Below, piece by piece: positions 2,312-63,275 of a stretch of DNA of 64,000 bases. This stretch comes from Cyanidioschyzon merolae. Its lineage: Eukaryota. Both the position numbers and the translations under genes were made by a program. The first letter of the stretch is position 1; the number at the start of each line of letters is the position of its first letter. The notes below the pieces were generated by a model that was not told the origin of the DNA, did no database searches, and saw only the letters and a program-made list of their open reading frames with translations. The stretch lies in the NCBI GenBank assembly GCA_000091205.1, contig AP006494.2. One strand, given 5' to 3'.

Positions 2312-2402
2312 ACATCATGGGTGTTACGCTTTCGTTCAGCTTGCGCTCGGGCAGCGACGGCTACGATGCGACGCTCGCGGGCGCTGACGAGATCTGGGCG
2401 AT

Positions 2403-6423: not shown

Positions 6424-6556
6424 AACAACAATAGTCCTCATCGAAGATACTCGCACCTCGATTCATGATACGTATGCCTGGCGAACAACAATTGCGGTAC
6501 TGGGCAACAAAAGTCCTCATCGAAGATACTCGCACCTCGATTCATGATACGTATGC
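6424..6556. repeat. Two copies of a 46-bp element agtcctcatcgaagatactcgcacctcgattcatgatacgtatgc, period about 79 bp
   Basis: Exact 46-bp duplication at about 6431-6476 and 6509-6554, each preceded by caacaa(c/a)aa. It sits about 250 bp upstream of the gene starting at about 6803. Confidence 0.85.
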
Positions 6557-38501: not shown

Positions 38502-40458
38502 GTGCAGCTGGTTTCGAAGAATGAGCAGAATACGCATCATGGTTTGCTGAAGGTGAGCGCCGTATGAACCTCACCTAGAATAGACCGGCAATGATGCTTG
38601 CAGGTCACTGGCCTTCTTCTCCGAGGAATGCCGTTGAGCGGCATGCTCTTTCCGAAACCGCAAAATCTGCACAGGATCGACGCTTGCCCGTTTCTCGCGT
38701 TGATTCCTGCTAGAAGCTGTGTTTTCTTCCAAGTATGCGCTGTCGGCCCATTACGCGCACGAGCGCAACAGCGCTGTGGCAGTGGACTGCAAAAGCGCCC
38801 GAATTGTTTGACACGTCGAGACTCGAGAGCTGCTCGGAAGGATTGGCCTCGTCGCTTTGTGGAAGTATATACGCGCATGGCGCTGCCGTGCCTGTGTACT
38901 CGGTCCTTATGATGCCGTGGTGCAAAACGCAAACTGTAGCTGCATCCCCGGTATGAGATGCATGTGTGCGAGCCCTGCATAGGGAATCTGTTGCCGGAGA
39001 ATGAGCGGCACTCGCAGCGCGAGCAGCAGCACTTGTATTTCAATCGTTTCCAATATAGATGAGCATGCGTCTTTTGAAGTATGCTCTTTACCAGGGACGT
39101 CTGTTCGCTATCGAGGTGCGCGCTGCGAAGCATCTTATGACCAGTTTCGTGCAGAAGGAGCATGTCCCTTGTCGGAGCGCATGCGGGCATCCCATGACGA
39201 CGCAAGCGGGCGAGCTTGCGTCTGTAAGAATCTACTCCTGGGAGGTGTCCACTGACTTGCCCAGCGATGAACACCTCGGAACGACCATGTTGTTATGGCG
39301 TATCCAAATCCGCTACAGCTGCAAGAATGGAACGTGCTCAGGAAAGTCGTATCTCGCAACTGTCCGAAAGCGTCAACAGCCGAGTTGAGAACTGCATCCG
39401 GATGCGCGCTGTGCACAAATAAAAGTATGAGTTGTTTCGTGCGAAAAAGCTTCAATCACAGCTCTTTCGTAGCAAGTCTCTGGTAGCGTCTACAATGACG
39501 TCAGGGACGCAATCCCCCCCTCAGAGACGCTACGCAGTAGCCAGCCGGCTCCGCGACTGCAGCTGAAGATTCCACACACTTCATATGCGTTTCTCACGGC
39601 GTAGTGGACCAGTCTCCCTCTGTTGCACCAGAGGCGACGCAGCGGCTTTCCGGCGGTTGCACCTGAGCCGGGCCATAATTCCCGTAGATCGGCAGTACGA
39701 ACTGCTACTCGCCAATTCACGATAAAAGTTTTGGGTCGTCCGAACGCTACAAGGGTTTCCGGCGAAGCAGCACGTGAGGCATCGTGAACTGGATCATCCG
39801 ATCTGAACGCATGATCGATCACTGCGAAAGCCTCGAATAGTACAGCGTCCAGGTCACTCGACAGGCATCAGCTTCACGCTCGAATTCAAACCGGATCAGG
39901 TGTGTTACATAGACTGGTATCGTGCCGAAGCATTCTTTCAAAAAACCATCATCAGTCTCTGGGATATCAGGAACAGCGCTTTGCTATGTACAGTGCGCAA
40001 GATCATCATGGAAACGAGCCGTTGTACTGGATACGCTACGCAGGTCATGCTCAGAGTTTCGTTCGTGAAGTTCATGCCTCGATGATCGGTTGCGCTGACG
40101 CACCGCTGCGAGGCTAGGCAGAATCAGCAATCCCGCCACCGGCGAAACGCTGCTTGCTCCTCAACGGCGGCTTAATGGGTAGCCATCGCAAGCGCGATGA
40201 GGTCGGTACCTCGGTGATCGGTGGTGTCCATGCTCCCCGGGCGAGGCTCTGCAGATGCAGCGACGCCGCCGCTTGCTCATTGGACTGTGCTCTGTAGAAC
40301 GCACACCTTTGCTCCTTCAACAGGAATTCCAAGAGAGCCCAAAGACTGCATTTCACAGCGCGTACGCTTCACCGATCGGAACGACAACCAGTCAGGATTG
40401 CGTCCTGGAGATGAGCGCCAACCTCGGTGCTCCCTGCAGGCACGCACCAAAAGCTGCA

Positions 40459-41238
40459 TCAAGATGACGGTTCATAGTCTCGCGAGAGGTCTATGCCCGT
40501 ACCCTCCAGATGCACATTCGTCAAGCGTATTCGTCTCGTGGATGATGACCCAGATGACCTCGCACCGGGTCGAGCGCGCCGTTTCAGCTGGGGTGGTCGC
40601 TGTGCACCGGTCGGTGCCAGAGCAGCTCGCACAGCCTCATGATTGCTTCCTTGCTTCAGACCGCGCTGGAGCAAGTAATCGTACACAACGCTGGAATCTG
40701 GGATTGGAATACTTTGCCAGAGTTTGCGCACTTGTTCACTTATGCGGACGTACAGCGTCGGATCATTTGGGAACAGAATCACTTCCTTCGTGTGTTCGCT
40801 GGGACGAAACGCGAGTATCAGCGGCGGGTTCCGCTCATATGCCAGTTCTCGAATATCTCGCAAGGCGTCCCGGTATGAGTCCTGCAGTTCCGAAACTGGA
40901 ATACCTTCTACCGAAGTTTTGAGCAAGTTCAGCAGATCATCGCGGTTACGCAAATAGTATTTCGAGCGCCAGCGCCAGCGCCCGTCCGACTCCAGTAAGA
41001 CGCGGGGGTTCCCGACCAAGTTCACCCACAGCTCCGAGTCTCGTTGCAAGCGTATCTGCAGGGCTTCCTCTATCTCTTCAGGTGAAACTGGTCTGAGCTC
41101 TTTTTTTAGATACCGTAAAACCTTGTGGAGCTGCGCACCGAGCGGTTCACTTGAAAAGGGACCCGCAACGACTTCGCCCGCAGCAGGCGGGTTGATATCG
41201 CCGTCTCCGGGTAGTGGGGTGCGGGTCAACTGCGTCAT
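40459..41238 (-). CDS. GTF2E2: General transcription factor TFIIE beta subunit (winged-helix)
   Basis: Colinear with human TFIIE-beta: LRYLKK / VNYMK; [37 protein letters not shown] / [58 protein letters not shown] / [29 protein letters not shown] / FQKLWRSVTVDS; and a basic tail KRRARPG...[10 protein letters not shown] / KKRRFKTHNEHL. Confidence 0.7.
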   Translation of the reverse strand: [259 protein letters not shown]

Positions 41239-41700
41239 CGGCGTCAGCCGCTTAATCTACAGCGATCAGTATACAGCTGATGAGATTGACGGCCCAAGTA
41301 GGGTTCTGTGGAGTGCGGTTCCTTCCTGAAGCCCCGGAAGCTCGAGAGACGCCTCGCCACACCCGCGCTCGGCGGTACTCGAGTGCCCTGAGTGATACCA
41401 ACCACCACCACAGTCAGTGTGTGCGTGTGTGTGCAGCGTCCAAGTCAACGTCAACTGCACTGTGGATCGCTCCACTTGATCCACAGCCAGAGTTCTTGAA
41501 CGCTGGCACGTGTCGGCACCCGAACCGCCTCAAAGGTCCAGCGAACGCTGCTATGGCTTGACGGAGCCGGCGCTCGGCGAAACGGAGCGCTGCCCGCCAG
41601 CGTACCAGGCGAACGGCCATTTTCAACGGTATCTGCTGCTGAACATACGTTGTCTATTCTTTACGCTTCGCTGTTGCGTGCCTTGAGCTGCATTCTGACG

Positions 41701-43698
41701 ATGCGGTGGTTGTCGTCAGGTTGGCAGCGGCTAGTCCATAGCGCATTCTCGAGGAGGTTCGGAAGTGTTTCGGGTAAAACCGGTAAAGTTGCCGCTTCTC
41801 GCTTGCCGGTGCTGGCTGCAACCGTAACCACGCTGAGCCTGTCCTACTACTGGGTGCAGCGGGAACGTCTCGTGAGTCGTCAGTGGTTCCTTACAAACCT
41901 CGTTGATGTTCCAAGTGCAAAAATTGGGTACCCCGTGCGAGCTAGTTGGAGTGAGGGTCCCGACACAAACGCAGCCGCAGTGCACTCTTGGCGTCTGCTC
42001 GAAGAAAAACTGCGACGTGAGGAGCAGCGACTTCATGGACCTTCTCCAACGTTTCAGATATACACTGCTGCTGATGGTAAGAGGAGCGTCACGTTCACAT
42101 TGCGCCTTGACGACCCGAAACCGCAACAACCGCATGTTCGCCGTGCTGCTCCCGGTGATGACTTGCTTGCGGCGTTTGCTACCGTGCTAGAAGCTCTACA
42201 GGAACTCCAAAAGTCAACGACAGACAAACAGCCAGGTAAGGATGAGACACCTGCCTATGCGGTCTCTGTGAGTGCTCAGAGCTCTGCAACGTCGACGACC
42301 GTAACCGCACGATGTCCAGAGGGTCAGATGCTGCATGTCTTTCTGCCGCACGTGGGCAGCTTTGCCGCAGAGCTTTGCTACTCGAAACCAGCGGATCAGG
42401 GCGCACTCAGTGATCAGGAGATTACCGCACTGGTCGAGGCGTATCGCATCGTCGCACGAGGACTCAGCAGTGCTGGACTCGAGTTCGCTACCGGTAATGG
42501 AGACAGGGCATCATCGGCAGCCTCTGGAGGCGCGCCTCCATCAAAACGACCCTGGAGACGCTCACGGGATGACGTTAGTGTGCGGATTGTACAGGAAAAA
42601 TTGGAAGCGATGGGCGTGGATGTTTACTTACCGAGCGCATTCCGGCCCAGAGAAGGTGCCGATGAGGAGCCGCCCGCCGCAATCGACTGGACGACACTTG
42701 CCGGCTACGATGACATCAAACAGCACATCGAGGCATCGCTGGTGCTCCCGCTGCGACACCACGAGGTCTATGACGCAGTCGCCAAGGGTACGCGGCGGAT
42801 ATTCAGCCCGAATCGGCCTCGTGCAGTGCTTTTTGCTGGGCCTCCGGGCTGTGGGAAGACCTCCACAGCGCGAATCATTGCGGAGCAAGCAGGAGTCCCT
42901 TTTATCCATGTGACCCTCGAAGCCGTTGTATCGCGCTATTACGGTGCCTCGGAGAAGCAGCTTTCAAGCATTTTCGACCTGGCCCTCGAGCTCGGTGGTG
43001 GCGCCATCCTTTTCATAGACGAAGTCGACGCTCTGGGTACTTCTCGAGATCGCAGCGACATGCACGAAGCGACGCGTCGAACGCTGTCCGTCCTCTTGCG
43101 ACGACTAGACGGTCTGCATCAAGATACTGGGAAGCGTTTGCGCATGCGCAGTTCTTTGTATGATGAGCAGCCGTTCGGTCCGCCGACGTCGTTGGCTCCA
43201 CCGCCACTGGGCTCAACCGAGTACGCAGCCACAGATGCTGACGGCTGGTTTGTCGTTGTCGCAGCCACAAATCGTATGCAGGATCTTGACCCTGCGCTCT
43301 TGAGCCGATTCGATGTGGTGCTGGAGTTCCCTCTTCCTGACTTTGAGACCCGCCTGTCCATCTATGAAATGTACGCCAAGCAGCTGAAACCTGATGATGT
43401 TCGAAAATTAGCGGCCGCCACGGAGGGCTTTTCGCCGCGCGCGATCCACGACAGTTGTTTGGCTGCAGAGCGCCTTTGGGCAGCGGGGATTATTCGCGGC
43501 GAACATGCTCGCAACAGCCTTCCCGACGTTAACGCGTACCTGGCAGCACTAGAACTCCGCAGCGAGCGTTCGTATCCAGGAGCGAGCTCTGGTCGCGCAC
43601 CTCGCCCAGGACTCTGTGATGGTCCAAGTTCTGATGCGGCACAGTACATTCATATGCCGAACTGTCGGTACACTCCACAGGCAGTGGATCAGGTCTGA
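41701..43698 (+). CDS. AAA+ ATPase with an N-terminal presequence-like region and one transmembrane segment (membrane-anchored, possibly mitochondrial)
   Basis: Walker A AVLFAGPPGCGKT, Walker B ILFIDEVDAL, sensor-1 VVAATNR. The N-terminus MRWLSSGWQRLVHSAFSRRFGS is followed by the hydrophobic VLAATVTTLSLSYYWV. The tracked start at 41650 is TTG; the ATG is at 41701. Confidence 0.8.
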   Translation: MRWLSSGWQRLVHSAFSRRFGSVSGKTGKVAASRLPVLAATVTTLSLSYYWVQRERLVSRQWFLTNLVDVPSAKIGYPVRASWSEGPDTNAAAVHSWRLLEEKLRREEQRLHGPSPTFQIYTAADGKRSVTFTLRLDDPKPQQPHVRRAAPGDDLLAAFATVLEALQELQKSTTDKQPGKDETPAYAVSVSAQSSATSTTVTARCPEGQMLHVFLPHVGSFAAELCYSKPADQGALSDQEITALVEAYRIVARGLSSAGLEFATGNGDRASSAASGGAPPSKRPWRRSRDDVSVRIVQEKLEAMGVDVYLPSAFRPREGADEEPPAAIDWTTLAGYDDIKQHIEASLVLPLRHHEVYDAVAKGTRRIFSPNRPRAVLFAGPPGCGKTSTARIIAEQAGVPFIHVTLEAVVSRYYGASEKQLSSIFDLALELGGGAILFIDEVDALGTSRDRSDMHEATRRTLSVLLRRLDGLHQDTGKRLRMRSSLYDEQPFGPPTSLAPPPLGSTEYAATDADGWFVVVAATNRMQDLDPALLSRFDVVLEFPLPDFETRLSIYEMYAKQLKPDDVRKLAAATEGFSPRAIHDSCLAAERLWAAGIIRGEHARNSLPDVNAYLAALELRSERSYPGASSGRAPRPGLCDGPSSDAAQYIHMPNCRYTPQAVDQV

Positions 43699-43745
43699 GA
43701 CGTTTTCGGTCCGGCAGTACGCATCGCGCCTGAGCACTTGTCGAG

Positions 43746-43779
43746 CTGGTGGTGGTGGTCGTCGTCGTCGTCGTCGTGG
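43746..43779. repeat. (GGT)4(CGT)7 trinucleotide microsatellite
   Basis: ctggtggtggtggtcgtcgtcgtcgtcgtcgtggtg, read directly from the sequence. Confidence 0.9.
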
Positions 43780-43860
43780 TGTATCCCGTCGGCTGCGGAT
43801 CAGTTCTGGGCATTCTCGCGCATCGACTCATGTCGGATTCATATAGAACGGATCCATTAA

Positions 43861-44901
43861 CTCTGTCGCACACTCTAGCGTTTGGGCCTCGTTCCCTGGT
43901 CATGAATACCAGCACTTGCGGGTATTTTATGCAACTGCTCCCGCTTTCCTATCCCTATCTCTGACTTTAAATACGCTGGTGTCTCCTTTCCTTACAGCTT
44001 CGTTGTACGAAGACGAAGGATGTTGATCGTGAGATTGGAGCCCCAACTTCGCAGCCCCGATCTGTTGTGCAACTATGCCATGCACACCCGGGAGTTGCGA
44101 TCTACGGTTCGCATGCCACTTGCATCTCCCTAGTATACGGAAACAGTGCGCCCTTCACGGCTGCGAAACTTGAATATGGTCAGGGGTATCCCATGGTTCC
44201 CCGCTGGCCCTCCGAGCACCACTACATGGCGCGTGAACGCCCGTTTCATCGCTCGGTACATGCCCTTGACGGATGTAGGAGGATTGTATGGAAGCGTCGC
44301 TTAGCGTCTGCACCCGGTGGCCGTTCCAAGCGATCACGGGCTGCCTCTGGGTGATACGTGCTCCACTTACGTCCTCGGTGCACTGCATATGCAAACACGT
44401 GTAGTCGCATTTTTATGACGTGACTTGTGGAACGCATCGTTGTCCATCATGCAACAGGTATCGGGAGGAGAATCCAGGTTCGGGATCCAGTCCAGCACTA
44501 CCGATTCGTCTGGACTCCACTCCTGCAATGCAGAGTCAGACGCTGCACCGGCGGCGGTCGCTGTGATGACTCACGTCCGAGTCCGAGGCCACATCGACGC
44601 AAAATGAGGACTTGAGAGCGTCCGGGAGCATCGCCGCTGCGTCGAGTCATGCTGCCGCCACACGTCATTTTGTCGATGCGCGCCACGAGAAAACGACGCG
44701 TGTTTCCAAAGCAAGCGATTGGTTGGAGTGAAAGGTTCAATAAATTAGCTGAATGAGGTTGTGAGCAATTCGTCAACCGCCAATGTCGAGAATTTTTTGT
44801 CGTTCATCCAACGGAGCGAATCGCAGCGTCCTCGAGTTGCCCCGGAATACAATGATCAAAATCGTGGGGTGAACGTGATTCGAGCATGCCACAAGTAAGG
44901 G
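43861..44901 (+). repeat. Dispersed direct repeat, copy A (1,041 bp; roughly 99% identical to 61525-62565)
   Basis: Colinear match from ctctgtcgcacactctagcg... to ...cgagcatgccacaagtaaggg, with about 11 substitutions and no large indels. A weaker similarity continues for about 25 bp beyond the 3' edge. It contains only short ORFs that I cannot place (for example 44067..44354). Confidence 0.9.
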
Positions 44902-45214
44902 GAGAAGTCGAGTGGAGGCTCTTGTATAAAAATTCTATTGTGATCTCCGTTATCTTACGAACTCTTACCCGAGAGGCGTCGCGAATCATCTCAGTTCCTG
45001 TCACCAAACGCGTCCCAGCAACACGGAGTCGGACACGACACTTCAAATCGACGACAGAGCGTCCTAAAACTCGTATAAATCAGTAAACACCAACTGGTCG
45101 CACATCGGATCATGAGAATGCACATGTAAGAGTGAGCGAAAAGAACGAAGTGCAGAAACAGAGCGCCCAGTACAATGGACAATTTTCATTTGAAATAGCT
45201 CGTCGATGAAACAA

Positions 45215-46527
45215 AAGTTCATGTAAGATAAATGAATTCCGGCAGGGAGATGCTTCTCAGCCTTTTCGGTAGGCCCGCTGCTATTGGTTTGCGCTTCTCC
45301 TGGTAATCATCGAGCCTGAGAGGCTGCCCTACGATGTTGGCTCGCGTCAGCTCTGCGGGCTCGTCTCCAGCACCGCACACCGTCTGATATTGAAGGCCGC
45401 GTCAAAGTCCCGGTTCACAAACTCAACGCGTTTCTTTCTGTTGGTGTAACACACCAATTCAATGAGTCCTCGAACTCGTGCCCTCATTGCCATTTGTTCT
45501 CCTGTCAGATCTCTGTACTCTTGTAAATCCTCCGGGCTCCGCTGGCACTTTTCCATCTAGACCTCCTGATGTGTACACCCCAGCTCATGGTGCATATAGA
45601 ACGTTCGGAAATTCATCAATGGGTATTGTGACAAAACCGTGTGCGCACTTCTTATACGTTCTTGTCGTTGGAGCTGGTGTACACCCTTTTTTCGACATCC
45701 AGCGCCCTACTCCGTATGCTACTTCGAGCCTTTGATCCTTGTCCGCCTTGAGGGCGCTAAACTCACTGAAAAATTTCGTGAATGCACCCTCTTTCCTCCG
45801 TACAGTTTCATGCGCAGACGAGTCCACCGGGGCTTTGCGTACTCTTGCCACAACTCCTCGTCATGAGCAGCTTGAGTTTCTATGAATTCTAGAAAAGCTT
45901 CAAAGTCCGCTCCTCTGCTCGCCACCTGGCTGATCACTTCCAGGTGCTCCTTCACTGCTGAACTCAACGTCTCACTTTCCATCGTCGCATTCATTACTCC
46001 CTAGTCTCTATCGTATCTCGCTCTTTCGGACTTTAAGGAAACGTACGTCTTTTGGGGTAAGCTGCCGTCGATACGATATTCCCCATGCTTGGATGCTGCG
46101 ATGGTCATGATAGTCGTGTTCCCGGGGTACGGGCCGATTACGACAAAGGCGTTCTTGTCTATCTCCTGCGTCACAGGACCCGCCTGCTTTTTTTCATCGT
46201 GCTTTGCCGAGGGCGATATCGAAAACACAACAGGACGATCCGCCTTCAACAGCCGATCGTGTACACATATGGCTGTTCCATCGGTTTCGATCATCCCAGT
46301 AAATACCTTTTTCTTGCTCGTATTGAGACGTTTGAAATCGAAGATATTCTTCCAGTCCGTCTCTCGGTTTCCGCCGGTAACTCTGTTTTCCTTACATCGA
46401 ACTCCGGACAGATCTCCTTCATGATGCTGTAAATGGCGCTGGAGTCGATGGTCACAAAATGTGACTTGATGTTGCATAACGGAACGACAGTGAAGCGCTT
46501 CTCCATTAGGAAAGATATCCGTTCCAA
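45215..46527 (-). pseudogene. Degenerate TnpB/Fanzor-like RuvC-nuclease gene remnant, copy 2, with the conserved 3' flank
   Basis: ORF 45347..45556 ends ...MRARVRGLIELVCYTNRKKRVEFVNRDFDAAFNIRRCAVLETSPQS*, which is a RuvC-III motif homologous to copy 1 (RVRvLaiLaLV....NRDFNAAIN). A RuvC-II-like VKEHLEVISQ lies in ORF 45719..45994, and a RuvC-I-like [16 protein letters not shown] in ORF 46291..46527. The parts are separated by in-frame stops and a frameshift. The 3' flank (about 45215-45346) is shared with copies 1 and 3. Confidence 0.5.
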
Positions 46528-46771
46528 TGAACCTGCTTTTTTCTCAAACCCAGCTGCATCCCCGCCTTGCGTTCAAGTTCTCGCTCCGAAGAAAAAAGAA
46601 ATAGCACAGGATGAGGGGATAGCATCTTTTTCCATCTTTCTTCATATCTGATGCCTTTTCTGCAGGGTTGACACGCCCCAAGATTGCACCGTGCTCTTTC
46701 ATAGCCGCACGGATTACAGAAGCTTCATTCTTGCTTCTGCGTGATATCCTCTTGTCAACTAATTCGATCTC

Positions 46772-47412
46772 CTATTCATGCTGGCAATCGTTCGTGATGC
46801 CATCGATGATGGCCCGTATCCATTTGCAAGAGAGGCCCGGGTAGCGTGTCAAGACGCAGCGTATCATGAAGCGTTTGAGATTCACAATCATATGGCTATT
46901 CCGGTTCGTGAGGTCCTTCATCGCCCCGTATTCGTAAATAGGCGAGTCAGCTTTGTATCGAGTGTCGTTGACGCGGTATTCGGCGTAATTTTCGCGCAGG
47001 GCATGCACTCGCTCATCTCTCCACAACAGGTCCCTTGTACCAAGCATCAGGTGGCTGAGAAAGCTCTTGTTGAAAAATTGTTTCGGATTCTCGACTGTTT
47101 TTATGTCCGTTACATCCTCTTCCAGCTCCTTCACCAAATACATTGATCCAGTAGACGCTTTCCAAGTTCAAATCGAGTAAGACGTCACATGTTTATGATC
47201 CACTCTTGCATCTTTTGCTTATAGGGATCCTTGATGTAACCTCCACGAAAAGCTTTGACCACCACCTCGTCGTATTGTCGTCTGCCGTCTAGCTTTCGAA
47301 GGCCGGCCTCCTGCCTCCGATCCTTCGTCTTCTCCTGTTCCGCTTTCCTCGGCACTGTTTTTTCGTCTCCGGCAACTGGTGACATCAGACTACCTGGATC
47401 CTCAGCTTCCAT
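46772..47412 (-). other. Two adjacent coding-like ORFs (47412-47185 and 47143-46772); possibly the N-terminal part of the Fanzor-like copy 2, or an unrelated small gene
   Basis: The first ORF is basic and NLS-like (DEKTVPRKAEQEKTKDRRQEAGLRKLDGRRQ). The second is coding-like and 123 aa. They lie immediately 5' of the copy 2 remnant on the same strand, and the total of about 690 aa would fit Fanzor1 size. Speculative. Confidence 0.25.
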
Positions 47413-48556
47413 GTCCTTAACTTTCCTTTAATTATTTCTGAAAACGAACGCTCTTTGAATGCTTCTGCTATAAATCGCGAAAATCACTTTGATGCCCTAA
47501 TCTGAGAATGGAACACAACTGCATTGAAAAACGATACTTTGCTATGGGTGTAACGCAAATATATGTTGTACGCCAGAGCAACATACTGATAATATGGATC
47601 GGGTTTCTCTTCAACGGGGAAATGCGCTTCGTCTCTCATGCCGGCCAGGTATGAAGGTGCGAGTATATACCGCGCTTTATCGAAAAAAGAACAGAAACTG
47701 ACTACCAACTAGAAACTCGATAAAAACTTCGTTCCAGCACTGAGATACCCATTATAATTGGGAGCATTTTCTGTATTTTCGAAAGTCTTCCTTCTAGACG
47801 AGGGTCCCGCGAGTTGGACGATTCTGCCGGGCTAGTGCATCATGATCCCCAGTGGCGGATGCTGTAGTTAGACCTGGGCAGCTCATCCGAAACGCAATTC
47901 ATTCTGGGGCTATGAGCGGTTATGCCGTGTCTGGGCATCGTTCAGGTCTCAGTGGTCTCCTATCACATGGCTTTGCACCGCTGCATAGAGTACGTCTATT
48001 TGCACAAATTGGAGGCTCTCATCTTGATGATGGATCACGATTCTGTGACTAATGAACCACATCTTGAGCCGAGGCCTTCAGTGGTACAGCAATGCCGATC
48101 TGTATCCGTGCAGCACCGCAGCACCGGAATAAGCGCTATAGCGGGTGCAGGAAAGCGGGTATTCGGTGCACGATAGATCATACAAAACAACCAGTATATC
48201 CGAGAGGAACTACGGATGATAGAACCTCGAGGTGGGACGCAGCTTTATGGACGCTCCCGAATGCCAGTATCCATCCCGCACGCTGGGCTCCGTAGTCTAC
48301 GGAAACGAATCGCCAAACCAAAAATTCAGCAAAAAATCCTCAGGACAAGTCAGTACAAATTTATCAATAAAGATACTAAATGGAACCTGCCGCTGGATCG
48401 CTCCTGTCTGAAGCGCTGACGAAGCACTTGATTCGCAGCGTTGCGTAGCCTCCCCGCTGAGACGCAGTGCAGCGAAGCAGGTCCGTGGCTCCTACCTACC
48501 CGAAATAGGGTTCCTGTTCCGGTTAGGAAAGAGTGAAGGTTGGGTAAGCAGAATTC

Positions 48557-50482
48557 ATGAACGTTTTCGAGGAGGAAATTGCGAGAGCGGTGGCTCTTAC
48601 CGAACGGGCAGTGCTGACGCGGGAGCCGCGCCTCATCGCCCGTGTCCTGCGCTCGCTGGGGAAGCTAAGACGGTGCTGGAACGGAAGACTCTTTGAGCAT
48701 CGTACCAAGAAACTTGAGGCCCTTGTTGCATCTGAAATCATTGCGGTTGATCTCTTTCCAGAGGACGCCGAGGCGCTGAAAGAGGAGCAAAGAAAGAAGC
48801 AGCGGGCACGTCAAACGTCCAGTACCGGCGCTGAGCAGACCGGCACCGACTCGACGAAGACGGGTCAGAAAACAGGAACGCCCGACGAAGCATCAGAGAC
48901 ACCAGTCGAAGAGACTAACGGTAAATCCGAACGAGAGCTTGGCGCTGTTCAGCGTTTCGAGTACGCGGTGAAGGACCCGGTGCTCGCTGCACAGCACGCG
49001 CATGCCGCACTTCGCCGGCTACTGGAGCGGTTGGAGCAAGGCGACCCGAGCGCACACAACGCAGTCTTGCTCGAAGATGTAGATGCGGCACTAGAACCGC
49101 TCTTGTCACGTAACCAACGCGCCGCCGCTGCGGCGAAGGGCCTTGGCGTGGTGCAGCCTTTGGCTGCTACGCGGTCCGAGGCTAGTATGATCTTGTCGAA
49201 CGGGGTTTCGACGGATTCGCAGCCAAACGAAACAGCTGCTGCTGGACTAACGAAGCAAAATGCAAACGCTCGCCAAATGTCTGGAGTATCGTGGCATGCG
49301 CTTCAACCGGAGAGCCTCGTGCTTTTGCATCTGCTTGTCGTCTACTACCTGCTCGACGCACATGGTGACCATAAGCTGCAGCTCCGTGCCGTGGACTGCG
49401 CGGATCGCCTGATTTCGCTCTTGGATCGAAGTCCTCGGCGACATACCATGGACGAAATCGCAGCACGCTGCTACTATGCTTTTACGCTGGCCTACGAATG
49501 CGTTGGACGTCTTTCGGAATGCCAACCGCGCTTGCTGAAGGCTTATCGCACTGCTTGCGTTCGTCGCGATCACGCTGGTCAAGCCGTGCTCTTGAATCAG
49601 CTGCTTCGCTCCTATGTTCTGGAACGGCGCTACGCGCAAGCGGATCAATTGTACAATCGCGCTCCATTTCCCGACATTCGGAGCAACAGTCAGCTGGCTC
49701 GCTATTTCTACTACATCGGACGAGTGAAAGCTATACAACTGGATTACACAGAGGCATTTCGTTGCTTGAATAACGCGCTGCGCAAAGCGCCTCAGCACAT
49801 GGCGACTGCGTTCCGGATAACGATTCTGCGATTGCTGGTACTGGTCCAGTTGCTCATGGGCGAAATTCCAGAGCTCCAAGTATTTCTTGGAGAGCGCTAC
49901 GCTCCTGATGCTGCTGTATTTCGGCGAGCCATGTACCCTTACTTGCAGATTGCAAACGCAGTACGTCGCGGTGATCTCCAACGTTTTCAGCAAGTACTTG
50001 AGGAGAATGCCACCTGCTATGAACAGGACGGCAATGGCTATCTCGTTCGGCGACTTCGCCACAATGTCATCAAGACTGGACTTGCTCGCATCGTGGCTGC
50101 CTACGCCCGCATTCCTCTGAAGGAAGTTCAGGAGATTCTGGGCCTGGATGATAGCTCCAGCACCGAGAATGTGGTGGCGAAGGCCATTCGTGATCGGGTC
50201 ATTCGGGCAAATATTGATCGGGATCAACAGTGTCTCGTGTCGGCGAGCCAAACTGACCAGTACCAAGGTCGCGAGCCGGCACGTATGTTCCATGAACGGA
50301 TTCAGTTTTGTATGGACCTCCATGAAGAGGTACTTCGCGCGATGCGCTTCCCAGACGACAAAAGAAACGAAGCCAACCTCGAGATCTTGCGCGAGATGCA
50401 ACGCGATGAGGCCAAGATCGAGCAGGCGCTCGCTGAAGGAGCAGAACCCGGCGACGAGGACGATACCGATGATATCCTCTAA
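48557..50482 (+). CDS. RPN3: 26S proteasome regulatory subunit RPN3 (PSMD3; PCI domain)
   Basis: [91 protein letters not shown] is near-identical in pattern to PSMD3 [59 protein letters not shown]. ATG at 48557 verified. Confidence 0.9.
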   Translation: [641 protein letters not shown]

Positions 50483-51685
50483 TAGTGCTCAGCTATGACG
50501 TATAAATGATTTCGCATGGTATTCGAGAAGCACACCAGAGGGTCCTGCATCCATGCCGTGCGAAATGCATGGTGACTTCGGCGTTGACCGCACGCCTATA
50601 TTCAGAGCAATGCGGTCTGGAGCACAGCTGCAGTCGCGCGTTTTTGTTGGCTTGGTTTTTTGACGGGCTTTCGGAAGAGAAATCTATCTTTTAGAGTGGA
50701 GAAAACTGGCGGAAAGCTTTTAGGGTGTCATTGCTAGCTGGCGAGAAATGGCCTGACTTGCTCAAGCCAGACATTTTACGGTCAGCAACTGGATGAACCA
50801 ATGTGCTCTTGGTGCCTATTCTGAACGTTGCGTGCCGAAAACGGGGCAAACGGAACCCAGTAAACACATGGTTATCTGCTGATCAATCCATTCCATTGCA
50901 TACGTAATCTGGGAAACACCACAACAGAACGCATAGTTTGTGATACTTCCGTGCCGTTGGTCCCAAACGATGATGAAATGGTGTGGACGGACAAGAAAGA
51001 AAGTACTTTTCTCTTGATGATCGACGAGATCTGAACAACATATGACCGATTTCGTAGTAAGAACGGAACCGCGTACCACAGGAGGCACTAGTCTTTGTCT
51101 TACGTGGCGAGAGTTTATCCGGGAAAAGTGGTAGACCTGCATATGTGTACTGAACTAAAGACAAATCCGATGTTCGCAAAGAAGAGGCAAACGAGCATTC
51201 CGAAACCATCAGCACCAGTGGCGATGCTATCCTATGGTCGTCAACAAGTCGCCAAAAGGATACGATCGTTCTATAGCGCATGCTTCATCGACGCTTTGTG
51301 CGACATTATCTTCGCATACTCCGCTAGTCTGCTCTCAGAGTGCGTATCATTCCGCAACCCAGAAGTATTTGAGGACTATGCTGGTTAGATTGGTGCTCAG
51401 CTGATCTCTGTGCCAGGCTATTCGCGATGGAGCACACCGGTCGAAGGCGAGTCCTCCTATGCCGAACGTCCTTTCTATGCTGAAGAATCAATAGACGGGT
51501 ATTTCGCATTTTATCGAAAGCGAAAGCTACGGGACGCTAGGAATGATCGAGCAGCTTCGTACTCGAGGGAGGCTCATCTGGCATTCCTCGCCTCGACGTA
51601 GCTCGCTCAGCAAATATCCGCAGGAGCTCTGGACGCAGCTCTGCAAGCTGTCCAGATTCTTACGGAATTTATCCATCAAACTTTC

Positions 51686-53035
51686 GTGCTTGAACACAAC
51701 GCATGTTCGAGACAGAAGATGCAGCACGGCCTGACCGTTGGACCAGAGATTTGCACATGCGCTTCGCGGAAAATTCTCGACGCTCCGCAGTGCGACGTTG
51801 CCGGTCGAAGCGTCTCCAGCACAGGTGTCAAAAAGGTTCAAACACGCCTGAAAATCCTAAACTGTATATTGTTCAATGTCGAGGGCGTCGTGAATTTCGC
51901 CTCGTGGGCGTTGCACCCGCAGCACACTGACCCAGACATATGGGCTCTGGAGGAAGGAACTCTTGGCGTGACAACGGGCGCGAATGACGAGCTGTTGCCA
52001 AAAGAGATCAAAGAGGTAGCGAGCATCGACGAGATGTTGCAGCCAGAGCGAGCGTCGCTTCAGATCATCGGATCTTATCGTGTTGCTCTTGATCTCGGAA
52101 CGATGGGCGTCGTATGCAAAGGACGCTTCAAACATGAGGTCTGCCTTCCATTGACAAGCCGTACTATGACGTTTTCCTGAACAAAGCCCTCGAGAGCAAA
52201 CAGGATGTTCGCCCCGATGCCGAGCGCTCGGATCTTGCTCAGGCGTTTATTTAATCTGGTATCTATGTGGCACTTCAAGACCCTGCGGATCAGTGTAGAC
52301 ACTTCTGTATTGTACGGAATGACCTGTTCAATGCGGCACGGCTACTCTCTTGAAGCAAATATAAAGCTTTCGAACAAATTCGCAAGCAGCATTGGCGGAG
52401 ACGATCCAAGTTCCTCGTTTACGAGGGGGGATTCGGAACCGAGTCTCTTTCCAGGAGGTGCGCACTCGCCAACTTGTTCAATATTCTCGAAATGGAAATG
52501 ACCGATAAGCCGCGTCGCTCTTATTGGCAGCGAATGGCGCTGCCCGTGCTGTATTCCACGAAAGCCGCACCCCGACTCTACCGACGACAGCGACAAACGT
52601 TTGCAGGAATCGATTCTGTACGATCTCTGTCGATAAGTACAGGGCGCCGGATACCTCCCATGACCGGAGCATATGACCACGCTGAAACTGGTACAGAAGC
52701 AGAGTCGAAACCGAACCGCAGTCACGAAACGGTCGACTCTCATTTGAGCTAACTCCAGGTATCGAGACAATTTGAGTTTACTGCCCTGTTAAAATGTGAT
52801 TGCGCAAGCAACCAAGCGCACAAGCATATGCTGCATCGAGACCTGAACGCCTCGATCAACATTGCGAAATGTGTCGTGCTGCAGGAGCCTCAAACGGCAC
52901 TGTGTCGATAAAACTTTCGATGGAATCTTCTCGGGCTCCTTACAGGCGTTCTGTTGAAATGGGTAAGACTTTCAATGAGAAACAAAAGTATCAGCCATTA
53001 GAGGGGCGATTCCTTGCCCGACTGTATCCGGGCAC
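51686..53035 (+). pseudogene. Degenerate TnpB/Fanzor-like RuvC-nuclease gene remnant, copy 3, with the conserved 3' flank
   Basis: Hand translation of 52753-52911 gives ...LLKCDCASNQAHKHMLHRDLNASINIAKCVVLQEPQTALCR*, a CxC remnant plus the RuvC-III motif HRDLNASINI. Its tail KCVVLQEPQ is homologous to copy 2 RCAVLETSPQ. A RuvC-II-like FNILEMEMTDKPRRSYWQRMALPVLYSTK in ORF 52474..52752 aligns with copy 1 NAMHLEVEGAESYSSPVLAKIRK. A RuvC-I-like YRVALDLGTMGVVCKGRFKHE lies in ORF 51686..52180. The three parts sit in different frames and are separated by stops. Confidence 0.5.
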
Positions 53036-54184
53036 TGGTATGAACCTGGTCAGCAATCCAGCAAGGCCTGGACGCCGTCTCTCTATATTCGGGGAACGAG
53101 TTTCCCGAGCGACTGGTGAACGACAATCCGAATCCGTTCTGCCATACTACTTAGCGTGCAAGGACCGAGCGTCCACGAAACTGGTCGTCGAGTGGAACCC
53201 ATCGCTTTGAGTACATACGCTCATGGATGGCGTGCGGAAAGCACTCGTGCGCTGCCGGCCCTGTGCAGCATTCATGAGCGACGCATCGCTTCTAATGCTC
53301 TCGCCTCCACGAACCAGATTGGAAGCACTCGTGCTCTGCGGGTATCGTCTTACACCCACGAGAACCCGACCCTGACAGAATGGTGGAAGCAGCAGCGTCC
53401 ACCGCAGAACGATAAACGCACATGGTGTCGCACGAAAGACGCAAATGATCGTTTCGAACGACGTTTGTGTGCTCAGGATCGTCTTGCGAACATCTGTTGC
53501 GAAACCCTTCCCATATACCCACCCGGTTCCATATCCAGAGCATGCCTCTAAGCAGTGCAGAGCTGTAACTGCAAGCGCGCCCTACACAAACACCCGTGGT
53601 ATCTTGCAACGATCAACAGTCGCTGCCGCCTTCGGATGCTTCTTGATGGCACGAATCGAGCAGCCGAAGCGAGCTTCACTGCTCATCCGCGCTTAGTGAG
53701 GTCTCTGCATACACGTGATCCGCTAAACGTTGTTTTCATAGATGCATGTAAAGCGCGTCCACCAGGACCTGGACATGCCCCGCGCCAAAAAGTCTCCGCG
53801 GATTGCGGAGCGCTTTCTGTGAGCTCGCCAGCGACAAGCGCTTCTTGTTGCAGAGTCATGCTGTACTAGGTCTCTTTATTCGTGTGGCGTTGAGCGTGAG
53901 TACGCTTAAAACAGTACCGAACTCGCCATGAGGTTCGCTTGTACACAACGCGCTCCGGTTTCGCGTGGAAAGCTTTATCGCCGGATCTGCATCGAACGCA
54001 GCTGGGCGCCGGTAGAGGGCGCTCATCTCCATTGCCGCCAGCGTCTATGATCCATTGCACATGCAAACTGGCACGCTGTCCAGTCCAGGTAGGTTCCGAC
54101 GCTGTACGCGGCAGGCAGGCAGTTTGGACACTACGAAGGCAACGACCGTCCGAAGCGTGCATCGAAACCACGATAGGTTCGCGT

Positions 54185-56326
54185 TCACACAACGGGTAGC
54201 TCATCCTCTAGATCGGCGTACGAGAACAAAAAGTCTTGCCTCACTCTTTGACACCACATTTGGTGATCAAAGTAGACATATGACCCTGATTCATAGTCAT
54301 CGGTCGTGAACCGGGGCTCTTCATGGCGCTGGAACCACGTCAAGTATCGTTTGTGGAAACGCCAAGCATGGCGTTTCAACTCAAGAGCAGCGAACAACTG
54401 ATGCCGTGGATTCTGTGGGAAGAAGAATATGAAGAACAGTGTGTCTGGATCGAGACGCTCGTACAGCTCTGGACTGTCCAAAGCTGCCAGAGGTGACTGC
54501 GGAAACGACCCGTGAACCGGAAACGGATTTCTAGGCTCATACCGAACTTGTTCTCGTTGCAGGGGCGCTGCAGCAGATTTGTTCTGGCGGGATGCTCCTA
54601 TTCCCGGGTTGGTACCGTTGGCTGAAGGCGCTGTTAGATAGAGTGCACCTTCTTCTAGTTGGCGCAGTGCTGTCAGCAGGGTTCGCGAGGCGATAGGGTC
54701 CGAGTCCACCAGTGCGGCATCGCCTGCGAGAAGCGCTGCTTCAAGTCCGCTACGTTCAGATGCATCCCGACCGGGGTCTTCGGGCGCCATCGATGCTGTA
54801 GCCGCTGTTGCAAATGCGTCACCACGGGAGCCCTGCAGATGGCCAAACTGCTGTGCCAATGGGACGCTTGCTCCGAGTCCAGCTGCCAGGGAAGACACAT
54901 TCATAGACACTGCGGATCCCTCGGGTGCACAGGTTCGCGAGTTCATCTGGTCTCCAGATTTCGATGGGTACGGGGACCGGAAAGGCGTTGCGGCGGTTGC
55001 CACCGTAGCTCCTGCACTCGTCCGAGAGTTCGACTCCAAGGACCCGCGATCAGCGTTGTCGACCTTAGAGACCATCACCGCCGCTAGAGCGTTAGCATGT
55101 GTGTCTCTTCCAGGTGGCAATCGTTGAACACTCGTTGGCATCTGGGGAGTGCTCTGCAACCCGAAAGAACCAAGCAAAGTGCTTGGATCCGTGGGTGTTG
55201 GCGTCTGGGGTGCAGCGCTCTGCTTCGATAACAGTACCGTAACAGGCTGTTGCTGGTTTGCCCAGGCCGAAGTCACTGGTCCGGCGGTGCTGCGCGGTCG
55301 ACCAGGACCTCCGGATGCGCCACCATCCGAGCCCAAAGCTCCGCCAATGGAAAGGTCTTCTTTGGATGCTGCCGCTTTGTTGTTCTCCTGTTCCGATGGA
55401 GGTCGTTTCGACTCGGATACGTCGCTGTTTTTTCGTCGCGAATCCTCTACGGGTGTCTGCGCTACACCTGCGGCTCCTGGTGTCGATGAATCTCGAGGTC
55501 GCCGTCCATCGTCCTCAGATTTGCGCTTCGCCTCACTTTCTTTTCTTTCAGCGTTTTCTGCTTCACTGGGCTTGCTCTCCGGCGCATGCTCCGTATCCTC
55601 CTTTGGCTTTGGAATATGAGAAACCTGAATCTCAACCGGGACCTCGAGCGTAAGCGCGTCGTATATACCCTCATCCTCCAGAAATCCATCTTCCGTATTC
55701 GCCTCGACATAGTACTCAACACTGTCTCTGATTTCATTCACGTCGTCACAATCGGCCGCATCGTTATCGAGCGCCCTAAGAATTCGCTCGAGCATCTCTA
55801 TATGATACTGGTGTCGCGCGATTTTCGCTCGCAGAGCATCCACAGCCATATGATCAATCTTCTTCTTCTTCGCGCTACTGACGGAAGCCTCAATATCCGC
55901 TTCGCGTTCTTCGATTTGAACTTTGAGCTTCTCGATGCAGTCTCTGACCCATTCGCGAACCTCGTTCTTCGACTTTTCAAGGGGGTCTGCCCGGTCCTGT
56001 GCCAGACCTTCCTTGCTGAACGCCTTCGTTTTCGTTTCTCTCTCACAGACTTTAAAAGCTTCCATTTTCTCTTCAATCTTCTTCCGGGCAACATCGATTT
56101 TGCTTTTGTCTTTGATTGAGGGGTCCGCTTGCCACACTTTGATTTGATCGCGAAGACGTTGCAGTTTTTTGATCTGCGACTTCAAGTCCGCTTCAAACTT
56201 ATCCCTTTGTGCAAGGTTTTGCGCAGCGTACACCTTATCCCAGATCTCGTTGAACAGGTCCAGACCTTCTTCGACTTTCTTGAGCGTGCGGTCGATTTCC
56301 GCTTGAAGTTTTCTGTTTGTTGCCAT
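54185..56326 (-). CDS. CNOT3: CCR4-NOT transcription complex subunit 3 (NOT3/NOT5 family)
   Basis: The N-terminus MATNRKLQAEIDRTLKKVEEGLDLFNEIWDKV...QIKKLQRLRDQIKVWQA matches CNOT3 [31 protein letters not shown]...EIKKLQRLRDQIKTW. The C-terminal NOT box is present (LFFIFFFPQNPRHQLFAALELKRHAWRFHKRYLTWFQRHEEP). The tracked ORF starts at a GTG at 56359; the ATG is at 56326. Confidence 0.9.
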   Translation of the reverse strand: MATNRKLQAEIDRTLKKVEEGLDLFNEIWDKVYAAQNLAQRDKFEADLKSQIKKLQRLRDQIKVWQADPSIKDKSKIDVARKKIEEKMEAFKVCERETKTKAFSKEGLAQDRADPLEKSKNEVREWVRDCIEKLKVQIEEREADIEASVSSAKKKKIDHMAVDALRAKIARHQYHIEMLERILRALDNDAADCDDVNEIRDSVEYYVEANTEDGFLEDEGIYDALTLEVPVEIQVSHIPKPKEDTEHAPESKPSEAENAERKESEAKRKSEDDGRRPRDSSTPGAAGVAQTPVEDSRRKNSDVSESKRPPSEQENNKAAASKEDLSIGGALGSDGGASGGPGRPRSTAGPVTSAWANQQQPVTVLLSKQSAAPQTPTPTDPSTLLGSFGLQSTPQMPTSVQRLPPGRDTHANALAAVMVSKVDNADRGSLESNSRTSAGATVATAATPFRSPYPSKSGDQMNSRTCAPEGSAVSMNVSSLAAGLGASVPLAQQFGHLQGSRGDAFATAATASMAPEDPGRDASERSGLEAALLAGDAALVDSDPIASRTLLTALRQLEEGALYLTAPSANGTNPGIGASRQNKSAAAPLQREQVRYEPRNPFPVHGSFPQSPLAALDSPELYERLDPDTLFFIFFFPQNPRHQLFAALELKRHAWRFHKRYLTWFQRHEEPRFTTDDYESGSYVYFDHQMWCQRVRQDFLFSYADLEDELPVV

Positions 56327-58477
56327 AGCACGGACCTCCTTGAAGACGAAGAACTCCACCGATATTCATATAAAACTAGCGAGAGCCGAGGCACCAGCTC
56401 CTACCACAGCGCCACTCTCTAGTCCGTTGCGTCCAGTGCAAAAGCTGCAACCGCGACTTGCAGACCGAAAAGTCCAGTGCCTCGACACGGTACGATGTTA
56501 GCGAGCGCGTATGGGCGGCAAGCATCCGTTTGAAGACTATGGCACTTAAATGGACAAAGCAGTCGATTCTGCAGTTTTGTTTCGCGCATGGTTGCGCTGG
56601 ATCGTCGAGATTGCGCGAGCGGGGCACTTGTCGACGAAACGCGTCCAGCGTAGTCAGCGCTTCGCAGGACATGAAGCATCACTGGACGGCATGGAATGTT
56701 TTTCGCCATGTGGACGGAGTGCGCGAAACGCGGGTGTTTCCATCGCAGCAATGATGACCTCGCTTCAATGAAATGACGCGGCATTTGAAAACTTTTGTCC
56801 AGAGGTTTACACATCGACCGTGCGTGTAATCGTTCGAGGAGCAGCGACGTCACTTGTGACTTTTGTGCAACCGATGCGCCGTTGAATTCGAATGACGCGA
56901 CGCTGTTTCGTTCAGAGGATATTCGGGTTGCTCTCTGGAGAGAGCGTAGGGCGTCGCAGGTTCGAAAACGTCGCATCAAGTCTTGAGCATGGCTTGACAT
57001 GGTACGGATACGGCTGCATCATCAAGCATGAGATGAGCTGCTGTGTGTTCGCGATGCAGGATACATGTGGTTTGGAAAATATTTTAGGTCGGCCGCAGCT
57101 GGTGAAATTCTGGACCGTGACCCAATGAGTCTGTGTTGGGAGAAGTGCAACGAGCATGTTTCTGCAAATCCGTATGGGAGGAAATCGCCCGATACGGAAG
57201 AAACCGGAGGATAAAGACTGACGAAAGTATTCAAGCCCTTGGTCAATACCAAATCGGTGTGTTAGAAAAAGGTCAGCACCGTCCCGAATGGCGACGACTG
57301 CGTTCATCCTGCGCCTTTCCAAACTAGCTACCATACGCGATGCGGCATTGCTCGCTAGACACAGCTCTCCCTGCAGCTGAATGCCCCGATACCACGTAAT
57401 TCGTATCTCGTCTTCCAGTCTACATCAAATGGACTCTTTTCGAGCTTGGAGCGCCCGCCGTCCTCCTTGTGCACCAACGATATACCCATTGGCGAATATG
57501 CAGCACCGGCAGCGGGTGCCGGGCACTGCCGAGCACCCAGCTGCGGCACAACGCGACTCTGCAACCAATCAGTACAGAGATGCCTCGCTGATTTCACATG
57601 CCTCCGCTTCTACTTCGAGACACTGCACTCGTGTATGAATGCCCGGTGCTTCCACGCATTCGAGATTCTTCCAGATTCCAGGGCACCAATCTGCATCTTG
57701 ATGAATCTGCATGGACACTTTCATCCGGTGCTGCACGCATGCACGGATGGATACGTTTCCATGCGTGCACAGACAGCACGCATGGACAGCACGCATCCGC
57801 ATGCTGCAGTGCCGCTTATGAACTGCGTTGAGCTTGTAGCACCTGGGTATGCTCTTTTACGTTAGGAGCTGCTCGCTTAGAGAAACTCTACCAAGGTAAC
57901 CATTCTGGGCATCTGGGTTTTTCTATGTCGCTTCGAGAGACGGTTTTATGCTCTGGCCAAGTACGACATAACGAATGCTTGGTGTTCCATCGAGTCGGAA
58001 GCGCGCTTTGTGCAGCGTGTACAGCAACGGCGCGCTTCTTCGTCGTAGTTTCGGCGCTCGTCAAGCATGACGAACGTCCGCACACTCTAACGTACCGTTT
58101 GTGCGCACCTGCCGCGTATAGCTATAAACCGTGTGCTGACGACGAAATAGTCACGCTGGTGGCAGCGACTCGGCAGCGACCTCTGCAGCGTGCGCCGCAC
58201 TGCCCGTGCGGAGCCTGCGTTCGCGCCCCGCCGCTGGGATTGCTGTTCAGTGCGTAGTCAGCAAGCGAGAAATAGACGGCCTCGCACGTCCACACTTGCC
58301 GGACGTTTGCGAGCTACTGGGCCTGCAGCTTGCTAAAAACACTCTGATGGTCGGTTTGAGTGACTTTTGATCTCGTATCAAAGGCACATCCATTGCCTAG
58401 AGCTTCGGGGTGCGTTCCGGTCCCGATAAGCGCCAAGGCGTTTATAGCGAGCGGGACGCGGCAAGCGGGTGTGCTCA

Positions 58478-60076: not shown

Positions 60077-60164
60077 CCGGCAACAGCGGTATTCACAAGC
60101 GGCAGCTGCGGCTCGACACCGTGGACTACGCGCAAGCGGCCTTGTGCGGGCAATGCTCTACCCA

Positions 60165-60194
60165 CAGCAGTAGCAGCAGCAGTAGCAGCAGCAG

Positions 60195-60229
<35 letters not shown>

Positions 60230-60231
60230 GC
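60165..60231. repeat. (CAG)n / (CAGCAGCAGTAG)n compound repeat
   Basis: cagcagtagcagcagcagtagcagcagcagtagcagcagcagtagcagcagcagcagcagcagcag, located 3' of the LCMT gene. Confidence 0.9.
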
Positions 60232-62565: not shown

Positions 62566-63275
62566 AAGCTGAACTTTGGAGGTTCGCACACAAGTACTGT
62601 ACAGTGATATATATTACTTTACAAATCCTTCGCTACAGGGCGTCACATTTCGTTTCGATTCCCATGACGTAAAGCATGTCAGCAACACCGCGTCCAAAAC
62701 GTCAATCCGAACACAACACCGAGTATTGTTCACCTACAAATGAATCCGTAAGCCTTTCTTCCTGTCCTTGGCATGTCAAGTCCGTACATCTAGAAAAACG
62801 TCGGATTTTATTCTCAAGGCATGAACAGAGCCAGCAGTTTAGCGTTTCGTTTTCATCCGAAACGAGTACTGCAGTGCGATCAAGTGCAGCACCAGCATGT
62901 CAGGCGTCCATAGCAGACCCCTTTCTAGCCATACTCCTCGAAAGGATGTTGCTGCATACGCAACGCTGTCGATTCCGACACCTTCATGGGTGCCGCATGT
63001 ACCAGCTGAGCAAAAGTGCAACCCCACAGGAAACCAGGTGCACGCCATGGCGCCTTCTGTACAAGGACGCGCGATTCATCGAAAAGCCAACATATAAGAA
63101 AAGAAAAATGCGCATAATCGGAGAACGCTGGCCTAAGTAAACGTTTTGTCAATGGAAAATCGAAAAGCCAACGGGCGCCCCTGGATTACCATGCATCGTC
63201 GTCGTTGTGAAAGTTTCGCACTGTGGCGTTTCCTTGGATACTGCTCGGCGACGATTCATAACTTTAGTGTATGTC

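Follow-up and report, generated by a model that had tools for sequence, protein, structure and literature searches.

Dispersed repeats can be kept alike by ectopic gene conversion, and concerted evolution of this kind is established for e.g. the Ty and delta elements of yeast and the Alu and L1 elements of primates. In TnpB and Fanzor elements the guide RNA is encoded in the 3' region of the nuclease. PUl-1 and PGv-1 have been described as mariner elements that carry Fanzor1 (Bao and Jurka 2013, PMC3627910), and from Cyanidioschyzon merolae the same study reported CMe-1A, an old Fanzor1 family of about 150 copies that are about 80% identical to their consensus, as well as TE-N2_CMe, a short relative represented by the 5' 635 bp of CMe-1A. 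We analysed a 64,000-nucleotide stretch of the C. merolae genome (contig AP006494.2, GenBank assembly GCA_000091205.1), below referred to as the window, which holds two nearly identical direct repeats of about 1 kb, A and B. The explanation that we favour, at a probability of roughly 80%, is that A and B are two dead copies of a non-autonomous transposon of about 1.36 kb with terminal inverted repeats (TIRs), and that their inner 1,044 bp have been homogenised by recurrent ectopic gene conversion.

The repeat pair and the 1.36-kb family

When the window was compared with itself using BLASTN, the A/B pair was its one long repeat. Positions 43858-44901 and 61522-62565 were aligned over 1,044 bp with 14 mismatches and no gaps (98.66% identity), in direct orientation, 17,664 bp apart from start to start and with 16,620 bp in between (44902-61521). 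The repeat unit starts with TAACTCTG in copy A and ends with AGTAAGGG, and the 14 differences were fairly evenly spaced along it. Given this length and identity, a chance origin of the match is not an issue. A preliminary description of this DNA, made from the sequence alone, had reported a direct repeat of about 1,041 bp and 99% identity, and its coordinates and length were essentially correct. The number of substitutions had been put at about 11 instead of 14, and the flanks had been regarded as unrelated apart from a weakly similar tail of about 25 bp, whereas we found that homology at 51-62% identity runs about 27 bp further to the left, reaching 43831 and 61495, and about 295 bp further to the right, reaching 45196 and 62863 (identity profile, nhmmer). 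Along the A/B diagonal, identity dropped from 98% to 52-62% past the right end of the unit and stayed above background for this further stretch.

The 1,044-bp unit is nested, in register, within two full copies of a dispersed repeat family of about 1.36 kb, the ends of which were set by alignment of seven to eight copies. We read the unit as a conversion tract inside a longer TIR element; it is not the element itself. The copies and their parts are as follows.

43831-45196, minus strand: element A, 1,366 bp, a full-length decayed copy with its coding sense on the minus strand (nhmmer model positions 2-1355)
61495-62863, minus strand: element B, 1,369 bp, a full-length decayed copy (nhmmer model positions 2-1359), both flanks of which are assembled independently on contig L003
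1-620, minus strand: element C, a third, diverged copy that is cut by the start of the window (model positions 739-1359)
43831-43857, no strand: left edge of element A, unconverted, with the decayed left TIR (TGTCGGATTCATATAGAAC), from the left-end alignment and the drop in identity
43858-44901, no strand: high-identity tract in A, the unit of the preliminary description, element positions 28-1071, read as a gene-conversion tract
44902-45196, no strand: right part ("tail") of element A, unconverted, with the decayed right TIR at about 45177-45196
61522-62565, no strand: high-identity tract in B (BLASTN self-comparison, identity profile)
62566-62863, no strand: right part of element B, unconverted (alignment with A)
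L006 13841-12466: family copy D (profile search)
L010 3108-1821: family copy with an orthologue on L011 (profile search)
L010 20794-21677: family copy (profile search)
L012 1704-406: family copy (profile search)
L012 16548-15365: family copy (profile search)

Element C was found at E 8e-164 with the family profile and at E 1.7e-33 with A alone, and its identity to A and B amounts to 58% over the part that corresponds to the unit. Contigs L006 and L010 to L012 had originally been fetched for other purposes and were then scanned with the family profile. In total, 8 distinct family loci were present in about 140 kb of Cyanidioschyzon-type sequence, all with the same two ends.

The ends of the consensus form an inverted repeat of about 18 bp that is imperfect but has a perfect core, TAAAATGGAAC (11/11 matching positions), and none of 500 shuffles reached its score. 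The family termini are TCAGATAAAATGGAAC-type ends. In A or B taken singly the TIRs have decayed and were undetectable. Outside the TCAG, a T was found two bases off in most ends and the next base was mostly G or T, not A; no clear TA target-site duplication was seen in the end alignments, and Helitron-type ends were considered and dismissed (all read by eye). The preliminary description had found neither TIRs, target-site duplication nor open reading frame (ORF) because the 1,044-bp unit was taken as the element itself. As far as the unit is concerned it was right about the TIRs, which lie at the true element ends and are visible only in the family consensus, and also in that the unit ends carry no TG..CA termini and no target-site duplication. 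The hairpin-forming pair that it named is a short inverted repeat at chance level, which was not among the best such pairs and is not conserved in the other copies.

Independent family members are pairwise 53-62% identical along the whole element, without any sub-region that is better conserved. In the right-hand 295 bp the identity between A and B was 0.54, compared with 0.55-0.57 for the pairs A-C, A-D, B-C and B-D, and the fraction of tail columns identical in all four copies was 0.296 where a star-like neutral model predicts 0.297. Since the tails of A and B are no more alike than those of other pairs and fit star-like neutral divergence, A and B are old, independent members of the family. 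The tract itself is 67-68% identical to a leave-one-out consensus, compared with 66% for the tails of the same two elements and 65-75% for the other copies. Every copy of the family is dead, and after drift about 70% identity with the ancestral sequence is left.

These results bear on whether the 1,044-bp unit could be a young non-autonomous element, or a solo long terminal repeat (LTR), that was recently inserted twice. Such an origin would account for two near-identical intergenic copies in the same orientation and without an ORF, but at both ends of the unit diverged homology to the same older element follows in register, as is seen from copies C to H, and only two loci were found in the metagenomes examined below. 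Given that the tract is as decayed as the dead copies and lacks both TIRs, it is not a young active element, and we consider two recent insertions highly improbable. Of the candidates named in the preliminary description, a solo LTR is excluded, as the unit ends inside a longer element without TG..CA termini or target-site duplication, and a non-autonomous element is an apt term for elements A and B but not for the unit.

As a separate observation, the family copies (A, C and those on L006, L010 and L012) differ at about 45% of sites and yet show very few indels. The ratio of indels to substitutions in this lineage looks unusually low, in a decay that otherwise fits the neutral star model.

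Transposase and Fanzor1 remnants

A majority consensus was built from eight copies and read on the minus strand. In one frame a helix-turn-helix region precedes a transposase core of the DDE_3 type (Pfam, E 1.1e-8, 35.4 bits with a cutoff of 28.6), in which the motifs AIDET...GYAPRGSR...MDNIAFHK could be read. The match covered profile positions 3-100 of 146 and stopped just past the second catalytic aspartate; the third catalytic residue and the C-terminus of the transposase are absent from the consensus. Matches to HTH_33 and HTH_32 were weak (Pfam). Up to the second catalytic aspartate the consensus transposase is collinear with the mariner transposase of PUl-1 (E 2e-5; sequence taken from the supplement of PMC3627910). 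Directly downstream of the transposase, in another frame, the consensus encodes the C-terminal approximately 155 amino acids of Fanzor1, with LY..R, GEPSAP, a zinc-finger region and the RuvC-III motif NRDLNAAINI. This peptide was matched to the Fanzor1 profile A1 with a probability of 96% (hhalign, E 3.2e-9) and weakly to the Pfam Cas12f1-like TNB domain (E 1.3e-3). A Fanzor1 profile of 15 sequences matched the solved Fanzor1 structures 9cf0 and 8gkh. In element A the corresponding remnants are located as follows, and the two abut at about 44421.

44756-44990, minus strand: helix-turn-helix remnants, with the ORF start at about 45095 and the transposase remnant running from about 45095 down to 44424
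44398-44683, minus strand: remnant of the DDE_3 transposase core, first aspartate at about 44666-44680 and second at about 44424-44444
43965-44421, minus strand: remnant of the Fanzor1 C-terminus, comprising RuvC-II, the zinc finger and RuvC-III (about 44019-44048), with the stop at about 43900

The claim that the repeat has no recognisable ORF was correct for copy A, in the six frames of which Pfam found no match, but coding remnants became readable in the consensus of many copies, and the domains emerged only with the eight-copy consensus. Stop-free pieces of the unit had no match among 5.8 billion proteins. When the frames of A were compared with the other copies using tblastn the scores were similar in all frames and did not discriminate between them. 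The mismatches between copies had no consistent 3-base periodicity, which indicated that the copies have not been evolving as coding sequence. A complete nuclease ORF with RuvC-I and the N-terminal domains was not present in the consensus, where the sequence upstream of the Fanzor1 part is derived from the transposase.

We infer that the family is a non-autonomous derivative, formed by internal deletion, of a mariner element that carried Fanzor1. The deletion would have occurred in an element of the Tc1/mariner-IS630 type and would have left both TIRs, the N-terminal two-thirds of the transposase and the C-terminal approximately 155 amino acids of Fanzor1. Like PUl-1 and PGv-1, the family combines a mariner-type DDE transposase and Fanzor1 within one TIR-bounded element. 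It differs from them in being only 1.36 kb long, in lacking roughly the N-terminal three-quarters of Fanzor1 as well as the end of the transposase, and in that no autonomous parent was found for it. Since the family keeps two TIRs and the Fanzor1 3' end, i.e. the region in which guide RNA is encoded, it could conceivably be a protein-less, guide-bearing satellite that is serviced in trans by Fanzor1, with the homogeneity of A and B resulting from repair of nuclease-triggered breaks in a homing-like manner and not from spontaneous recombination, which we regard as a long shot.

Probable homogenisation of the inner tract by gene conversion

If A and B have exchanged sequence, variants that distinguish strains should be expected in both copies. 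JGI contigs from hot-spring metagenomes were screened for a 24-mer of the unit, and exact matches occurred on only three of them, L001, L002 and L003, with no third locus. L001 and L002 contain the left junction of copy A, and L003 contains copy B plus both flanks at 98.3% identity. A 28-kb contig from another sample, L013, is collinear with window positions 38554-51916 at 99.1% identity and spans copy A and both its flanks. Both copies are thus found at the same two loci in independent assemblies from wild relatives, which excludes an assembly artefact, one of the origins that had been proposed.

At unit positions 186, 200 and 927 strain 10D, from which the window comes, has C, C and T in both copies, whereas all metagenome contigs that cover these positions have G, T and G (L001 and L013 at locus A and L003 at locus B; L001 ends before position 927). 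Only at the edge of the tract, at positions 3 and 25, did differences follow the locus in every contig compared. By our estimate, three identical parallel changes among about 1,000 sites at 1% divergence are too improbable as independent mutations, and these variants must therefore have been copied between the paralogues after the strains split.

The position of the tract points in the same direction. It is 98.7% identical between A and B compared with 51-62% in the edges (27 bp and 295 bp) that belong to these elements, it lies wholly within the longer homology (positions 28-1071 of 1,366), and it is collinear with six other copies. The in-register nesting at both tract ends indicates a product of homologous recombination and not of insertion. 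A gene-conversion-homogenised repeat had been among the candidates of the preliminary description, and the in-register tract and the shared strain variants bear it out.

The sequence of events would then be as follows. Two independent ancient insertions would have placed A and B in the same orientation in different intergenic spacers 17.7 kb apart. Non-allelic, intrachromosomal gene conversion by homologous recombination would have homogenised the inner 1,044 bp recurrently, most likely ever since the copies were still alike, and would still have been active after 10D and the wild hot-spring strains separated. The two outer parts (about 27 bp at the left end and 295 bp at the right end) would have escaped early, diverged like any family member and thereafter been beyond participation. 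C. merolae is known to integrate DNA efficiently by homologous recombination (PMC3764038, PMC8504449). As in the known cases of concerted evolution, non-allelic copies are too similar for their age, the tract lies inside the homology, and lineage variants occur in both paralogues. Unlike in those cases, a single pair is affected in a large and very old family whose members are pairwise about 55% identical, the tract (1 kb) is long for an element of this size, and genes that are presumably essential lie between the two copies.

The main alternative is a single late copying event, in which a break in one old copy was repaired from the other about 1% divergence ago, with a few short conversions afterwards. 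Such a repair might have been microhomology-mediated or synthesis-dependent, and a nuclease cut could conceivably have preceded it. The abrupt right boundary without any gradient and the fairly even spread of the 14 differences would both fit such an event, and the distance of the A/B tract to the other copies is equal under both models. However, A and B would beforehand have been identical at only about 55% of positions, which does not suffice for homologous invasion, while microhomology gives no reason for the in-register ends or for a stop 27 bp inside the left end, and the post-split variants in both paralogues show that conversion recurs anyway. We therefore rate the single event as unlikely and below long-term conversion, as it provides no reason for the register at both ends.

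Selection could also have kept the tract alike if it had been co-opted to serve e.g. as non-coding RNA, regulatory module or source of guide RNA. For dead transposon DNA, A and B are unusually alike, and the tract includes the Fanzor1 3' region, the established guide-RNA site in such elements. The search of Rfam that the preliminary description had proposed matched no family, neither at the gathering threshold in the whole window nor at E<=1 in 43700-45400, tRNA and tmRNA scans found nothing, and no protein homologue was found in any frame. Divergence between strains is no slower in the tract than in its flanks (about 1.06% compared with 0.5-0.8%), and the other copies have decayed in a flat, neutral-looking manner with no conserved sub-region. 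Purifying selection alone can moreover not yield strain-specific variants that are common to both copies, and co-option is in our view very improbable.

Several points weigh against recurrent conversion. An identity of about 55% cannot start ordinary homologous recombination, so homogenisation would need to have been unbroken since the copies were young and the right-hand 295 bp to have been lost very early; this unbroken history is deduced and not seen directly. At 44901/44902 identity falls abruptly from 98% to 55% without an indel or other visible feature to account for it, and the model gives no reason for the asymmetry of the edges that escaped (27 bp on one side, 295 bp on the other). 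The GC content of the tract is 54.1% compared with 46-53% in the other copies, and the rate of weak-to-strong changes is 0.27 compared with 0.19-0.24; these differences are small, and the GC-bias signal expected of conversion is weak. Furthermore, the 24-mer scan was limited to exact matches and covered metagenomes rather than the 10D isolate genome, and contigs built from short reads may mis-phase variants of A and B, a worry that the three agreeing assemblies lessen but do not remove.

Host genes and neighbouring elements

The interval between the copies had been reported to hold RPN3, CNOT3, LCMT1 and two Fanzor-like remnants, which was confirmed using Pfam, a CMe-1A search and tblastn. The host genes at the two loci are as follows.

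41650-43698, plus strand: AAA ATPase gene (Pfam AAA, E 1e-33), which ends about 130 bp before element A and is syntenic in Cyanidiococcus
48557-50482, plus strand: RPN3 (Pfam), all 641 residues identical to XP_005536777.1 of C. merolae 10D
54185-56359, minus strand: CNOT3 (Pfam)
58469-60076, plus strand: leucine carboxyl methyltransferase-like gene (Pfam LCM, E 1e-4), with a syntenic LCM gene in Cyanidiococcus

In Cyanidiococcus yangmingshanensis the gene order DEAD - LCM - CNOT3 - RPN3 - AAA - TFIIE-beta is the same as in the window. There the spacers between AAA and RPN3 (950 bp) and between LCM and the DEAD helicase (1,908 bp) contain no repeats, while their counterparts in the window measure 4.9 kb and more than 3.9 kb and contain one repeat copy each. 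Given this synteny with short spacers, the interval is ancestral single-copy DNA, and A and B lie in spacers that were expanded separately. They are insertions into two separate intergenic spacers, and no host DNA has been duplicated. A recent segmental duplication of host DNA, another of the proposed origins, was rejected on these grounds, as the flanks are unique past the element ends and the genes are single-copy by synteny. Taken together with an assembly artefact, for which nothing speaks besides the high identity, it has a negligible probability: the junctions are reproduced by contigs from four separate metagenomes, the flanks are unique, the gene order is that of Cyanidiococcus, which is without the repeats, and the C. 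merolae genome is described in published abstracts as completely sequenced.

It had also been suggested that the direct repeats are substrates for deletion of the interval. This is valid in principle, but a crossover between A and B would delete RPN3 and CNOT3. Since the interval carries presumably essential genes, only non-crossover products should be expected to survive.

Beside element A and within the interval there are two CMe-1A remnants, so that the "Fanzor-like" label given earlier to these remnants proved correct and can be replaced by the name of a published family (78% identity to the consensus, in line with the roughly 80% published for its copies).

45241-48313, minus strand: full-length decayed CMe-1A copy, consensus positions 6-3089 at 78% identity, its 3' end adjoining the right TIR of element A; the intact homologue P0121 aligns over amino acids 1-742 (tblastn)
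51519-52931, plus strand: fragmentary CMe-1A remnant between RPN3 and CNOT3 (nhmmer, CMe-1A positions 1108-1765 and 2536-3010; tblastn)

Further CMe-1A pieces were found at 10349-10628, 20696-20970 and 21467-22071. With phmmer, neither the decayed Fanzor pseudo-protein nor the intact P0121 had a match in the PDB, for which the 15-sequence profile was needed. The CMe-1A and 1.36-kb consensus sequences had no match to each other at E<=10 (nhmmer) and, given this lack of DNA similarity, represent two different Fanzor1-related families. The 1.36-kb family resembles CMe-1A and TE-N2_CMe in that it occurs in the same genome, is of similar age and is dispersed in intergenic DNA. It differs from CMe-1A in that its Fanzor1 remnant is only 24% identical to a CMe-1-type profile and in that it has TIRs, of which CMe-1A, as described, has none. 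The idea that the unit is the 3' end of the adjacent Fanzor element was rejected, as that element belongs to CMe-1A and is a copy in its own right, no Fanzor is present beside B or C, and a host gene separates copy D (L006) from the nearest Fanzor gene.

Some further features were observed in passing. At 45197-45241 the right TIR of element A borders on the 3' end of the full-length CMe-1A copy, and isolated 3'-terminal fragments occur at 20696-20970 and 52457-52931; these recurring fragments may reflect 5' truncation or a preference in insertion or decay. The 280-bp piece at 10349-10628 (plus strand) is 75% identical to CMe-1A positions 6-285, a part reportedly common to TE-N2_CMe, and is probably a copy of the TE-N2_CMe type. 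On two metagenome contigs, L007 and L008 (814-2710), an intact Fanzor1 gene is preceded, at a distance of about 1.4 kb, by an RVT_1 reverse-transcriptase gene. Beside CNOT3 a 193-amino-acid ORF without a Pfam match is present (56419-57000, minus strand), and a 199-amino-acid gene lies beside CNOT3 in the wild-strain contig L005 (610-1209); this may be a small lineage-specific gene. Trinucleotide runs are located at 43749-43782, starting about 50 bp past the stop codon of the AAA ATPase gene, and at 60165-60230 and 24897-25331, the latter two matching one another between opposite strands. Positions 1878-2322 consist of about 6 tandem units of about 72 bp (94-97% identical), which overlap ORFs of both strands and adjoin a Nudix-like gene (1009-1617, minus strand), and a 52-bp direct repeat (6426-6477 and 6505-6556) is 98% identical at a distance of 79 bp from start to start.

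The A/B pair is a new example of well-known processes: an odd-looking repeat of a model alga is explained by an ordinary process and can be set aside as a candidate novelty. For genome engineers it is of practical relevance that two 1-kb direct repeats flank RPN3, CNOT3 and LCMT1. The pair is also a clean case from nature of two dead transposon copies that evolve in concert in a haploid organism with efficient recombination, and its sharp tract boundaries could serve to estimate rates of ectopic conversion. The chimeric mariner-transposase/Fanzor1 deletion-derivative family, which is distinct from the published CMe-1A, seems to be abundant in Cyanidioschyzon and extends the published picture of Fanzor1 captured by mariner elements.

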